DNA of 64,000 bases from a bacterium (GCA_043815505.1 JBDRIV010000003.1:62239-126238), one strand, 5' to 3'. Positions 41,603 to 64,000 are shown, counted from the first letter of the stretch. Program-made: numbers and translations. Notes: generated by a model not told the origin, from the sequence alone.

Positions 41603-41657
41603 TTGGCCTATAGCATATAGCTAATGGCTTATGGAATGCCTTTTACTAGTGACTTGT

Positions 41658-41701
41658 CCAGCCCCAGTTTTTTATTCCAAAAACTGGGGCTGGGGTTTTT
41701 T
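41658..41701 (+). terminator. Strong rho-independent terminator after pilB
   Basis: 14-15-bp stem (CCAGCCCCAGTTTTT / AAAACTGGGGCTGG) followed by GGTTTTTT. Confidence 0.7.
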
Positions 41702-42313
41702 GATATAAAAAGGGGGGGGCGCTATTCTTCTTCCCGAATGGGAAAAATTTGGCGCCCCCGCAGGCTAGTCGCAGACGTGTGGGTCCCAGTGGCTCATAGT
41801 GTGTCCTCACGGCGATTTATGGTGCTTGCGCGACGAGTCGTCGTGTTAGCGGCGTAAGCACCTGTTCCAGGATTGATGTTGCCAGTCAGCAGGCCGACTG
41901 GCTTCACACTTGGACGGTAGGAGTGAATAGAAGGTTTTGTCCATTTCATCACTGGACCGATTATCGCACTCTCGAAATACCGCCTCTCTGGTACGATTAA
42001 TTTATACCAAAACGATTTTTTCTTGTCAATAAAAATAGGGCAACTTCTGGTTAGACCATTAGTTGCCTTGTATATTTTTTCTTGTCACAACTTTTGAAAT
42101 ATTATTTTATAAAATCCTCCTTCTATGAATGGTTTAGCTGTCCTCACATTGCAAACGAAATAATTTCGGGGCGCCGGACGACTCTGTTGCAGTAGAGGCC
42201 GTCCGGGCACCCACGGGACCATGATAAATGAGAAGCTTTGCCAAAAGGCCGTTTTGACAATCATTTACCACAGACCACAGTTGAAATATTTTTATCCTAA
42301 GAGATTGTTTGTG

Positions 42314-42358
42314 TCAATAAAAAACCGCCAGTGACTTATTTTGATAAGTTTGGCGGTT
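42314..42358 (-). terminator. Minus-strand terminator downstream of the 42379..42651 ORF
   Basis: AACCGCCA-N20-TGGCGGTT stem, followed on the minus strand by TTTTTTATT. Confidence 0.45.
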
Positions 42359-42378
42359 GAGAGATAGGTGATAAAATT

Positions 42379-42651
42379 CTACCACCAGATAAGACTGTCT
42401 CTCTCCTTTCTGTCCTGGCGACTGTCTCTTTTCTCAGAACGGGAACGTTCAACCTGCTGGAACGCGCTTTTGCCAGGGCCGCCGTTGTTTATGATCTCCT
42501 CGCCGTTGACGTCGTAGAGCACGTCGTGAATCCACTGGGTCGGACCGGTGACACCGAACTGGGCGATGGCCTGTTTGCGCACCTTCTTGCGCTTACGTAT
42601 GGCAACCATATTCTTTTTTTTATCCCTTTTCACCCTTTTTCTCGCCATCAC
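42379..42651 (-). CDS. Hypothetical small basic protein, GC-rich (about 55% GC)
   Basis: 90 aa. RBS GGAGG 9 nt upstream. N-terminus extremely Lys/Arg-rich. Own terminator downstream. No family recognised. Confidence 0.35.
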   Translation of the reverse strand: MMARKRVKRDKKKNMVAIRKRKKVRKQAIAQFGVTGPTQWIHDVLYDVNGEEIINNGGPGKSAFQQVERSRSEKRDSRQDRKERDSLIWW

Positions 42652-42753
42652 CTTGCCTCCATAAATGCGTTAGAGATGCAGTTGAAAAAACAAAAAATGC
42701 TATTTGAAGCATCGTGAAATATTATAATAGTATTACAATTCTGTCAAGACTAA

Positions 42754-59716: not shown

Positions 59717-60328
59717 TTACAAACCATACTTGATACCAAGCGAGAGTGAGGTTGCGTATCCGTTCCGGCGCTCTTCGGAAATACCGCTGACAAAATTGAT
59801 TATACCGGTGTTGATACGCATCCACAACACAAACCTCTCCCCCTCCAGTACCCAGGTTTCTATTTGCAGCTCGACAGCGCGGGTGCGGTTTATGGTTTGG
59901 TTTTCCGCAAATAAGCGCAAATGAAAATCCAGATCCCAAAATAGGTTGTTTTTGCCCGCTTCCAGCGTTCCGTACAACGGACTTTTTTCCCAGATGATGC
60001 TGTCAGGAAATTTGCTATGGTAGCCGGATTCGCGCGCGCCCAGGCCTAAAAAAGATTCTCCCCAGTACCGACGCGCGACCAACGAGTAATGATAAGTGTA
60101 GCCGTCGGCGTTGTTCTTCTCCTCATTTGTTATCTCACCGTCGAGAAACAAGGCATATTTTTTTCCACGAGCCAGCATTTCTACCAACCCGCCGACGCCA
60201 TTTTCAAAACCCAGATCACTGCTCATGTTATAGGAAACATAACCTCCGATATAACTTTGGGCGAAAACGGTATACCCGGTCAGAAACAGCCCTACCAACA
60301 TCATTAACACAATCGTCAACCTTTTCAT
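59717..60328 (-). CDS. Secreted beta-strand-rich protein (OMP/porin-like), GC-rich
   Basis: 203 aa. Signal peptide (LFLTGYTVFAQS), alternating hydrophobic pattern, RBS AAGGAGG, and a terminator at about 59677-59705. Local GC is about 48%. Confidence 0.4.
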   Translation of the reverse strand: MKRLTIVLMMLVGLFLTGYTVFAQSYIGGYVSYNMSSDLGFENGVGGLVEMLARGKKYALFLDGEITNEEKNNADGYTYHYSLVARRYWGESFLGLGARESGYHSKFPDSIIWEKSPLYGTLEAGKNNLFWDLDFHLRLFAENQTINRTRAVELQIETWVLEGERFVLWMRINTGIINFVSGISEERRNGYATSLSLGIKYGL

Positions 60329-60793: not shown

Positions 60794-61324
60794 CTATTTA
60801 GATGATGGTAATTCTTCGTCAGATTCTCCTAGAGCCAATAGAACTTTCCCGCTATGATGTTTATTATTTTTTGCCATCATGGCCAGAGCTAAACATCTGT
60901 GCATTCCTTCAATCACAACAATCTTTTCATTTTTTACTCTCATGGCAGTTATAATTGTTTCTTCTGGGAAATCTTTAATCAATCTGTTTACGATTCCGTT
61001 GGCTTGAATCTCTTTATTCTCTGCCAATTCGGAAAAGGTTCGTTCTTTGGCTCCGTTATAATAAAGTTTTGTCCAACCGGAAAAGGGTCCACCAAAAAAT
61101 TCGGGAACACTTTTTAGTGGTTCAACTACTTTATACAATCCCCATTTTTTATCTCTACATTTGAAACGCTTAGCATATGTTTCGCGCCACTCTTCCCAAG
61201 AATTAAACCCGCGACTCTTATAATGTTTCTCCCAAGCCGGACTATCAGCTTCATTCCCCCGCCAAAATTCAAAAACTTCATCCCAAGTTAAAGATTTAAC
61301 TTCTTTTATATTTTCGTCTTTCAT
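60794..61324 (-). CDS. Hypothetical protein; C-terminal region weakly ParB/sulfiredoxin-like
   Basis: 176 aa. Trp-rich N-terminus. KIVVIEGMHRCLALAMM resembles the DGxHR core of ParB/Srx-fold proteins (weak). Confidence 0.3.
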   Translation of the reverse strand: MKDENIKEVKSLTWDEVFEFWRGNEADSPAWEKHYKSRGFNSWEEWRETYAKRFKCRDKKWGLYKVVEPLKSVPEFFGGPFSGWTKLYYNGAKERTFSELAENKEIQANGIVNRLIKDFPEETIITAMRVKNEKIVVIEGMHRCLALAMMAKNNKHHSGKVLLALGESDEELPSSK

Positions 61325-61921: not shown

Positions 61922-62329
61922 TTAGATTTTTTTAGATTGTTCTTTTTCTAATATTTCAATAAGAGGTATTCGGGTACAATTCAAATCAACATCTTTTAGC
62001 TTTTCCAAATTAAGATATTCATGACTAACATGTTCTCCGGTTTTAATAAAACTATCACCCACTAACTCTGCTTCGTAGCACAAATTAAGCGTGTTAGCGT
62101 CTTGAGGATTTATACCAAAAAAAGCATAAATTGGTCGCTTGTTTATTATTCGACAACCGACACCCATTTCTTCTTTACATTCACGATTCAAACACTCTTC
62201 GGGTTTTTCACCGTGACTGATTCTCCCTCCCGGCAAATCCCAGATTCCCTCTTTCTCTAGACACCAAAGAATATCTTTATTCTTGTTGAAAACTATTGCT
62301 TTTACTGATACTTCAAATTGATCGGGCAT
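61922..62329 (-). CDS. NUDIX hydrolase
   Basis: 135 aa with NUDIX box GGRISHGEKPEECLNRECKEEMGV. Confidence 0.8.
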   Translation of the reverse strand: MPDQFEVSVKAIVFNKNKDILWCLEKEGIWDLPGGRISHGEKPEECLNRECKEEMGVGCRIINKRPIYAFFGINPQDANTLNLCYEAELVGDSFIKTGEHVSHEYLNLEKLKDVDLNCTRIPLIEILEKEQSKKI

Positions 62330-62355
62330 ATTTTTACTTTATGAATAATAATCTT

Positions 62356-62420
62356 ATCCTACCAAAAAACCGCCCTTCTGTATATTAAGCTTGCTCTGAG
62401 TTTATCGAAGAGGCGATTTT
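62356..62420 (-). terminator. 65-bp terminator module, copy 1 (direct repeat of 62858..62920)
   Basis: About 97% identical to copy 2. On the minus strand it forms a CGCC-CTTC/GAAG-GGCG hairpin followed by GTTTTTTGGTAGGAT. Confidence 0.55.
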
Positions 62421-62424
62421 CCTA

Positions 62425-62829
62425 TTAATTTTTCAAATTATAGGATTCTTTTATCCATCCAATGAATTCAATATCTATTTCTTTTTTGTCGTAAACCATA
62501 AAGCAGTTCTTGTAAACTTTAGCCGACATTTTAACGCATTGTTTTAACCTTTTGCTATTTATTTTTTTATCAAGCGCAAAGCGAATTTCTAATCCATCTT
62601 TTTTGGGAAGAGCTGCTAAAAAATCATAATTGCCAAATAAATGAATACAACAGGGAATAGAAATTATTTTACATTTACCAATTTTTTTATCTATTTGTTT
62701 AACTAAATAATCAAATAGTTCCTTGGTTTTATCCTTGTTCTTAAAATGTTCGCCCAAAGAAACTTTCTTACAACTATGAGGCTGCTTGGCTTTATTAAAT
62801 TGTCTACCGCACTTTGAACAAGTCCACAT
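62425..62829 (-). CDS. Zinc-ribbon protein of unknown function
   Basis: 134 aa. N-terminal WTCSKCGRQF...HSC zinc ribbon. Resembles the N-termini of DUF5655-type proteins (recollection only). Confidence 0.35.
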   Translation of the reverse strand: MWTCSKCGRQFNKAKQPHSCKKVSLGEHFKNKDKTKELFDYLVKQIDKKIGKCKIISIPCCIHLFGNYDFLAALPKKDGLEIRFALDKKINSKRLKQCVKMSAKVYKNCFMVYDKKEIDIEFIGWIKESYNLKN

Positions 62830-62920: not shown

Positions 62921-62976
62921 TTTGTTTAAAAAAAGAACAGGTGAATCCGTCTAGGTTTCACCTGTTTAATTTCTGT

Positions 62977-63468
62977 TTAGTAACTTGATTCGATACTTTC
63001 ATGGTGGCTACCTGGCCAATCACAATCAGGATTGATACAAACTGTCCAAGTGTTGTCATAAAAATCAACCGCTCCCAAATCCTTTATGAATCTGTAGGTT
63101 GGACCACCACAGAAAGAACAAGGTTCCTTATTCATTTTTACTGGCGCCGACTCCAAATTAGCAATCAATTTCCTTTTCATTATGGGAAGAAATCGATGTG
63201 AGCCATAAGGAGCGAAGTTTATTCCAATTCTTGCGTTGCTAATCTGTTTACAGAACGGGCAGTAGCAGGCCATGGCGCACTCATAAAATTCACCGTATTC
63301 TAGGTCATAACCTATAAATACACCTGTGGAACCGCAGGCTTCACACATCAATTCCGAATTCCAATGAATCCTACCTCTCTCTGGAAGATCTCTGTCAACT
63401 TCACATTTTGCATGCATCACTACACATAAAGCTCTGAATTCGTCTATCCATGTTGACATTTTTCTCAC
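62977..63468 (-). CDS. Cysteine-rich hypothetical protein B (multiple CxxC)
   Basis: 163 aa with 14 Cys (CEACGS, CYCPFC, CSFCGG, CINPDC). The ATGA overlap with the upstream gene indicates co-transcription. Confidence 0.4.
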   Translation of the reverse strand: MRKMSTWIDEFRALCVVMHAKCEVDRDLPERGRIHWNSELMCEACGSTGVFIGYDLEYGEFYECAMACYCPFCKQISNARIGINFAPYGSHRFLPIMKRKLIANLESAPVKMNKEPCSFCGGPTYRFIKDLGAVDFYDNTWTVCINPDCDWPGSHHESIESSY

Positions 63469-63992
63469 CTCCCCATTATACGATGAGGTTGATTACAATA
63501 TGGACAAATTCGGTATGCTATTTTGTCAACAACAACTTGCTCGCTGATGGGATGTTGCCAGCTTACAATTTTTCTTTTCTTTCCAGCTTCTAATGTCTCA
63601 CATCTTACGGAGTAAGTACGATCTTCCATCTCTTCTCCATATTTACAGTGTGGACAAAATAGGATGAAAAGAAAGTTTCCAGCAATATCGTATTCTGAGT
63701 AGTAAAAACAGTAAGCTTGTTTTTTACAGGAAGGGCATTCAACCTCCGATCCTATTTTTAGAAAATTGTCATGCGGAGTACATTCACCAAAAGTCTGTTG
63801 CGCTTGGCAAGCCAAGCAAATGGGCACCCCTTTTTCCTCAGCTTCCTGTAAATATGTCAGAACCTGACCATCTTTTCTGTTTCCAATCCAGTAGTCGTGT
63901 GTGCTCCACCCACAATAAGCACCAAATGCTGTGCATTCTGAATCAGCCGGAGTAAGATCGGGTCCTGTGTAAGCAATAAGATGGGCTACCAT
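63465..63992 (-). CDS. Cysteine-rich hypothetical protein A (multiple CxxC)
   Basis: 175 aa with 15 Cys (CLACQ, CPSC, CPHC, CPYCNQPH). Start is 8 nt from the window end, so upstream context is unseen. Confidence 0.4.
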   Translation of the reverse strand: MVAHLIAYTGPDLTPADSECTAFGAYCGWSTHDYWIGNRKDGQVLTYLQEAEEKGVPICLACQAQQTFGECTPHDNFLKIGSEVECPSCKKQAYCFYYSEYDIAGNFLFILFCPHCKYGEEMEDRTYSVRCETLEAGKKRKIVSWQHPISEQVVVDKIAYRICPYCNQPHRIMGR

Positions 63993-64000
63993 TGGTTTGT

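Follow-up and report, generated by a model that had tools for sequence, protein, structure and literature searches.

Proteins built of two Cys4 zinc ribbons joined by a linker are represented by the RNA polymerase subunits and cleavage factors Rpb9, RPA12 (A12.2), C11 and archaeal TFS, in which the C-terminal ribbon is of the TFIIS-C type and carries an aromatic residue after its last knuckle; in members active in cleavage this ribbon has a conserved acidic hairpin (DE). One relative, the archaeal TFS4, inhibits RNA polymerase (RNAP) during virus infection, and such ribbons can turn into RNAP inhibitors (PMC5715097). Other described systems of interest here are the TIR defence proteins with an N-terminal sensor (ThsB-type), the effector-associated domains (EADs) of NTP-dependent conflict systems (Kaur et al. 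2020, PMC7159879) and the generic zinc-ribbon clan (Lar, PF14354, and Zn_ribbon_8), whose models span one ribbon.

In the present study a pair of cysteine-rich genes, here called A and B, was analyzed and compared with these systems. The pair lies at the end of a 64,000-nt stretch of bacterial DNA (GCA_043815505.1 JBDRIV010000003.1:62239-126238), referred to as the window; all positions are counted from its first nucleotide (Table 1). In its predicted architecture B appears to resemble the Rpb9/RPA12/TFS proteins, with two Cys4 ribbons and a linker, a TFIIS-C-type second ribbon and the aromatic residue behind it. The explanation we favour, while granting it somewhat less than an even chance, is that A and B together make up a binding module of zinc ribbons, heteromeric and without enzymatic activity, that is linked to defence systems.

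Table 1. Positions of genes, signals and domains of the A-B pair in the window
Feature	Position	Strand	Identifier, composition or basis
Gene A	63465..64000 (in-window ORF 63465..63992)	minus	NCBI ABIE68_03535, MFH1509210.1, 190 aa, 14 Cys
AN domain of A, residues 1-80 (13-80 in window)	63798..64000	minus	BLASTP to P0007
Divergent B-like module of A, residues 86-187	63477..63782	minus	hhalign and HMMER against the 48-sequence B profile
Shine-Dalgarno-like GGGGAGGTGA for B	63465..63474	minus	Read from the sequence; overlaps the last codons and stop of A
Gene B	62977..63459	minus	NCBI ABIE68_03530, MFH1509209.1, 160 aa from ATG, 12 Cys
B zinc ribbon 1, C39/C42/C67/C70	63250..63345	minus	Conserved columns, 48 members
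B zinc ribbon 2, C114/C117/C141/C146 then W148-P-G150, TFIIS-C type	63022..63120	minus	Conserved columns
Intrinsic terminator, 12-pair stem then CUUUUUUU	62928..62966	minus	10 nt past the B stop

The initial annotation had described two adjoining genes with many cysteines and a GC content above background, and in this it was right; their reading frames stand in tandem on the minus strand. Cysteine accounts for 7.4% of the residues in each product, which are the two highest values among the 63 non-overlapping window ORFs of at least 100 aa (median 0.6%), and the GC content of the pair is 41.1%, compared with a window mean of 36.1% (sd 2.6% at the length of the pair; 97th percentile). CxxC motifs occur four times in A and three times in B, the latter with one additional CxC and one Cx4C. 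The details had to be revised: instead of 14-15 cysteines in each protein there are 13 in the 175 in-window residues of A, 14 in its full 190, and 12 in B, and the proposed lengths of 175 and 163 aa give way to the NCBI forms of 190 and 160 aa. Gene A is cut by the window edge and starts at about 64037, some 37 nt beyond it; residues 5-15 of the 190-aa form, which come ahead of the in-window ATG, are kept in the homologue P0007. An ATGA overlap of the two genes had also been proposed, whereas at the actual junction the TGA stop of A (63467-63465) is followed by 5 nt and then by an ATG for B at 63459. A GTG start, from which the B frame would span 62977..63468, is the sole option that yields an overlap (GTGA). 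The ATG is the most likely start, because homologues align from its methionine, the NCBI call gives 160 aa from it and the Shine-Dalgarno-like sequence is placed accordingly.

The hairpin behind B folds at -17.2 kcal/mol (z -4.1), a value reached by none of 200 shuffles, and is followed by a U7 tract. A consensus terminator scan did not detect it, probably owing to the 3-8 nt loop limit of that scan. The 5-nt gap, the ribosome-binding site inside A and the location of the sole terminator after B together make a two-gene operon well supported, and the proposed co-transcription of the pair gains sequence support from the same three features. They also support the view that A and B are a self-contained transcription unit, apart from the downstream DUF5655, NUDIX and YgjP-like genes.

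Neither A nor B gave anything above noise in Pfam, NCBIfam, PHROGs or PADLOC, so the earlier statement that the proteins have no recognisable family holds for curated libraries; it does not hold for B in a wider sense, as B belongs to a real, unnamed family that remotely resembles Rpb9/RPA12. Its four closest homologues share 45-53% identity with it, and 52 columns are invariant in the five-sequence alignment. A profile search of 1.84 billion representatives returned 60 matches, 40 of them with E below 1e-10, and three further relatives were found in species-representative genomes (Armatimonadota, an unclassified MAG and, as a C-terminal half, Firmicutes UBA4795). One of the 60, P0031, was discarded as a spurious eukaryotic mucin-like match; it was the sole source of apparent fusions to Relaxase, SEA, DUF6046 and zf-CHY domains. 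Every source name given for a member reads 'hypothetical protein', the remaining members having none, and no solo B homologue matched a PADLOC model. B fits the layout of this well-supported family throughout, with about 160 aa, an N-terminal helix (W..F), ribbon 1 (CxxC..CPxC), an FLPxMKxKL helix and ribbon 2 (CPxCG..WxVCxNPxCxWPG); judged by its sequence, it represents this rare group of double zinc-ribbon proteins in canonical form. The family is distributed sporadically (Armatimonadota, Firmicutes UBA4795, unclassified MAGs), which, taken with the raised GC content of the pair, points to horizontal acquisition. No copy was found in the viral contigs scanned, nor in phage genomes or plasmids searched with tblastn, and the metagenome scan for homologues used an alignment narrower than the 48-sequence set.

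Across 48 members the positions that are invariant or at least 90% conserved are C39, C67, C70, C114, C117, C141, C146, L91, W148 and G150. Within ribbon 1, C39 and C67 are invariant and C70 reaches the 90% level; C42 is usually cysteine and sometimes replaced, and some members have a histidine nearby. These conserved cysteine columns make two structural Cys4 ribbons a well-supported feature of B. The three to four metal sites previously assigned to each protein thus overcount the conserved ones: the B family has two invariant Cys4 sites, and A has two clear sites and possibly a third. Since the near-invariant residues amount to the eight ribbon cysteines, L91, W148 and G150, B is probably a binding module and not an enzyme; no conserved polar constellation suggesting catalysis was seen in the 48 members. 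The weak matches that some members give to generic zinc-ribbon models (Lar_restr_allev in 10 of 48, best E 4.7e-6; Zn_ribbon_8 in 11 of 48) do not extend to the B of the window, and those models cover one ribbon, unlike the 160-aa two-ribbon layout.

The resemblance to Rpb9, RPA12 and TFS is unusual for bacterial proteins in being detectable at all, and it raises the possibility of an RNAP-directed function. B and the B-like module of A might be a bacterial analogue or remote homologue of Rpb9/A12.2/TFS that docks on RNAP, for instance within the secondary channel, so as to modulate or inhibit transcription, as the inhibitor TFS4 does in archaea (PMC5715097). Compared with all PDB sequences in an unbiased search, the 48-sequence B profile found RPA12 best (E 3.4e-5), followed by several Rpb9 chains (3.6e-4 to 6e-3), and this group was its only significant match; the alignment runs colinearly from the second knuckle of ribbon 1 through the linker to the end of ribbon 2. 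A, too, weakly matches Rpb9 and TFS_arch. An AF2 model of B built from five sequences (pLDDT 84.7, pTM 0.72) runs from an N-terminal helix through a beta-rich ribbon 1 and a further helix to ribbon 2, and in the PDB the 20 best Foldseek matches of this model without exception belong to Rpb9, RPA12 or C11 (best E 0.02, probability 0.82). Yet the Foldseek E-values are not significant, the superpositions are poor (TM 0.26-0.34), and the extra N-terminal helix and longer beta-sheets of B set it apart. In BFVD the best Foldseek match of B had an E of 0.06.

Further points speak against an RNAP factor. Neither A nor B matched the Pfam models RNA_POL_M_15KD (PF02150) and TFIIS_C (PF01096); both models are outside the 25 Pfam families most often matched in the 48 members at E up to 1, and single-sequence scans gave only generic zinc-ribbon families. 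The hairpin of ribbon 2 in B carries KDLGAVDFYDN, and close relatives, with D132..Y134-D135-N136 at this site, align there with the acidic RSADE; yet the motif they share (KDLG..DYYDN..WTVC.NP.C.WPG.H.E) decays in distant members, where the hairpin is lost, so that the catalytic acidic hairpin is not conserved over the family. The hosts of the family are bacteria, and that of the window looks bacterial as well (NCBI 'MAG: bacterium'; the window encodes a QueA-like protein). Bacterial RNAP is not known to have an Rpb9 site. The known bacterial secondary-channel factors, Gre and DksA, have other folds. Some B members are fused to TIR, a further difference from the Rpb9/RPA12/TFS proteins. We treat the relationship of B to Rpb9/RPA12 as remote and at the level of predicted architecture, not of family membership, and consider an action of the pair on RNAP unlikely.

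Gene A is close to an orphan as far as sequence searches go. A word-based search among 5.8 billion clustered proteins retrieved only A itself and no full-length relative, and a search with the alignment of A and P0007 added P0007 only. The N-terminal part of A, which we call AN, matches this 100-aa protein over residues 5-79 (36% identity, E 2e-11, BLASTP). P0007 is encoded directly upstream of, and overlapping, a B homologue in metagenome locus L004, and it is also similar to the first 90 residues of P0008/P0068 (E 1e-10), proteins in which AN and a canonical B domain are joined directly. The link of AN with B is therefore well supported, by adjacency as well as by fusion, and suggests that the two work together. 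H19, C42, C74 and C77 (A numbering) are kept in all three known AN copies of a three-way alignment, which suggests a small putative zinc site. The N-terminal zinc-ribbon extensions of P0016 and P0039 were considered as relatives of A and rejected for want of significant similarity.

Behind AN, residues 86-187 of A are colinear with the deep B profile over 95 columns (hhalign 76% probability, E 2.3e-5). Here a ribbon (C101/C104/C128/C131) is followed by a linker and then by no more than the first knuckle (C178/C181) of a second ribbon, where the alignment ends, so that this B-like module is truncated. With HMMER, A reached 16.1 bits against the B model, a score attained by none of 5000 shuffles with fixed cysteines. 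The initial annotation regarded A and B as paralogues, and this stands only in a distant sense, because yeast Rpb9 (13.5 bits) and RPA12 (17.1 bits) score about the same against that model; the similarity emerges with the 48-sequence profile, whereas the pairwise BLASTP comparison of A and B is not significant (E 0.055). A shallow profile of five B sequences gave A a probability of 1.6% in hhalign. The AF2 model of A (pLDDT 40) was unusable.

A separate observation concerns the AN-B fusion gene (P0068), which is followed by a gene of about 352 aa in four of four contigs (L018, 1298-2356; L019, 910-1971; L020, 896-1954; L021, 915-1694, cut by the contig end). The product is annotated as a HEAT_2-repeat protein in L018-L020, the copy in L021 being without annotation. 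The fusion gene of L018 has a small GIY-YIG gene in front of it.

The surroundings of B homologues were compared in about 20 loci, mostly short contigs, and neighbours were not conserved among them. In four loci with four different neighbourhoods, B forms the N-terminal part of a protein with a C-terminal TIR domain (TIR_2 E 7e-22, SxWVxxE motif present; relatives P0014, P0069, L011 and L012); these loci fall into two subgroups with 73-75% identity between them, and the GC content of their contigs ranges from 0.36 to 0.49. On the 37.7-kb TARA contig L015 a ThsB_TIR-like gene and a caspase-family gene come after the B-TIR gene, the whole lying between housekeeping genes; in L011 it adjoins an AbiJ_NTD4/PDC-S32 gene; and in L006 a solo B lies near a HEPN-MNT pair. 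TIR is present in only about four of the approximately 75 known members, most of which are solo proteins with unrelated, often housekeeping, neighbours.

It is this association, contributed by a minority of members through TIR fusions and defence-island neighbours, that suggests a role in defence. The defence-related module named as a candidate by the initial annotation thus finds indirect backing in relatives of B, whereas the pair itself is without an effector or a PADLOC match: neither A nor B matched TIR in Pfam or PADLOC, neither contains an effector domain, and the operon contains no recognised defence gene. B occupies in the four fusions the position of the N-terminal sensor of ThsB-type proteins, with the SxWxxxE motif kept in TIR_2, and two of the four loci also carry ThsB-like, caspase or AbiJ genes. 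Unlike in ThsB-type systems, the two proteins have no TIR or other effector domain, B matches no PADLOC model and there is no ThsA-like partner. The EAD concept offers a useful analogy, in that a small, apparently non-enzymatic domain would occur in two adjacent products (B and the module of A) and is elsewhere fused to a TIR effector. In an EAD pair two adjacent genes share a domain, one copy being joined to an effector and the other to an NTPase or vWA core. The A-B pair lacks the defining features of EADs: no STAND, vWA-MoxR or GTPase core is nearby, the visible part of the locus holds no effector or NTPase, the copies in A and B are very distant from each other, and B is not among the described EADs as far as checked.

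According to the favoured reading of a defence-linked binding module, A and B would be cytoplasmic proteins held together by structural zinc, presumably not by iron. A would consist of a small HCCC domain, AN, and a divergent, C-terminally shortened B-like module, and the two proteins would assemble into a heteromer. This heteromer would lack enzymatic activity and might serve as a binding module, sensor or adaptor within the conflict (anti-phage) repertoire of prokaryotes. In other genomes, the B domain forms the N-terminal and presumably ligand-sensing part of TIR effectors that consume NAD. The pair might exert its effect by regulation, by recruiting an effector encoded at another site or by inhibiting a target directly. 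If this is true, prokaryotic immune proteins employ in B a zinc-ribbon domain for sensing or adapting that has not been described before and that is found alone, next to or joined to a second new domain, AN, or as part of a TIR protein, and the B-TIR proteins provide a concrete handle on what such a domain senses. If it is not, B is one more small structural-zinc family in uncultured bacteria.

A metal-handling, zinc-homeostasis or redox pair, that is, a zinc store or chaperone or a rubredoxin-like electron carrier, would be suggested by the 7.4% cysteine arranged in paired CxxC knuckles, which in their rubredoxin-type form could formally bind Fe, by transporter genes near B in two loci (ZIP in L022, CDF in L023), and by metallo-beta-lactamase (MBL)-fold genes flanking B in L009, L022, L013 and L014. 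Against this, there are just two conserved metal sites per 160 aa, which is typical of structural zinc ribbons with CPxC knuckles, the transporter genes are neither adjacent to B nor co-operonic and were seen in just two of the approximately 20 loci, and fusions to TIR and AN fit poorly with metal storage. The redox or metal-handling candidate of the initial annotation gained no positive support. Neither A nor B matched a rubredoxin or Fe-S family in Pfam or NCBIfam, and the operon has no redox partner genes; among 65 B members a single one gave a weak RUBY_RBDX match (2.9e-4). We regard such a function as decidedly unlikely.

The MBL-fold genes lie directly beside B (L009, 34-483; L022, 4673-5323; L013, 827-1282; L014, 6164-7180) and represent three lineages. 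Those of L009 and L022 encode proteins of the same family, 59% identical and located on opposite sides of B, and the L022 protein has a faint Anti-Pycsar_Apyc1 match in precomputed annotation. A corresponding link at the window pair was considered and dismissed, the sole MBL-fold gene of the window being 28 kb away. In the Firmicutes UBA4795-like lineage, a conserved 157-aa protein with 8-9 Cys and the sequence MGNCFFLENSVK (L007, 3680-4153; L013, 77-550; L014, 5414-5890) precedes a copy of B that consists of the C-terminal half only, and in L014 the remnant of B is down to about 56 residues.

A combination of transcription and defence was also conceived, in which a bacterial branch of the Rpb9/TFS-type double zinc-ribbon factors, docking on RNAP, would have given rise to the B family. 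The B-TIR proteins would then couple the state of transcription, for instance a takeover of RNAP by a phage, to NAD+ depletion, and the A-B pair would be a stand-alone heterodimer that binds RNAP and serves as a TFS4-like regulator or inhibitor; we consider this combination very unlikely.

That the pair belongs, with the genes downstream for the DUF5655 zinc-ribbon protein, the NUDIX protein and the YgjP/DUF45 metallopeptidase, to one larger accessory module, as had been suggested by grouping them in one block, is scarcely credible, for although all these genes are closely spaced on the same strand, the NUDIX protein matches the PADLOC candidate PDC-S07 (E 1.2e-16) and the DUF5655 and NUDIX proteins are unusually rich in cysteine too (6.0% and 4.4%), the pair is separated from them by its strong terminator and a 147-nt gap before the DUF5655 gene, GC content falls from 41% to 28-35% downstream, none of the three families recurs beside B homologues in the approximately 20 other loci, and the NUDIX protein scores about equally against PDC-S07 (58.6 bits) and the generic Pfam NUDIX model (53.1 bits). 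In their own right, the DUF5655 and NUDIX proteins (61922-62829, minus strand) rank third and fourth in the window in cysteine content, and the former carries an N-terminal CxxC..HxC knuckle. The PDC-S07 match of the NUDIX protein (61922-62329, minus strand) is full-length and may lack specificity.

Some other regions of the window deserve mention. A gap of about 1.15 kb (41603-42753) separates a GspE/PilB-like ATPase gene from valS and contains no ORF of at least 110 aa; its GC content rises to 46.7%, compared with the window mean of 36.1%, and a perfect 15-nt hairpin lies at 41658-41693. No Rfam match (at the gathering threshold or at E up to 1), tRNA or tmRNA was found in this gap, which may represent a divergent structured RNA or a decayed gene. 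A 203-aa ORF at 59717-60328 (minus strand), with a signal-peptide-like N-terminus and no match in Pfam, NCBIfam, PHROGs or PADLOC, lies within a second GC peak (49%, 59750-60249) and is overlapped by long ORFs on both strands. At 60794-61324 (minus strand) a 176-aa protein without a family match shows, as its sole match, a weak similarity to a PHROG HNH endonuclease (E 0.2) around VIEGMHRCLALA, a motif that may resemble the DGxHR motifs of the ParB/Srx type.
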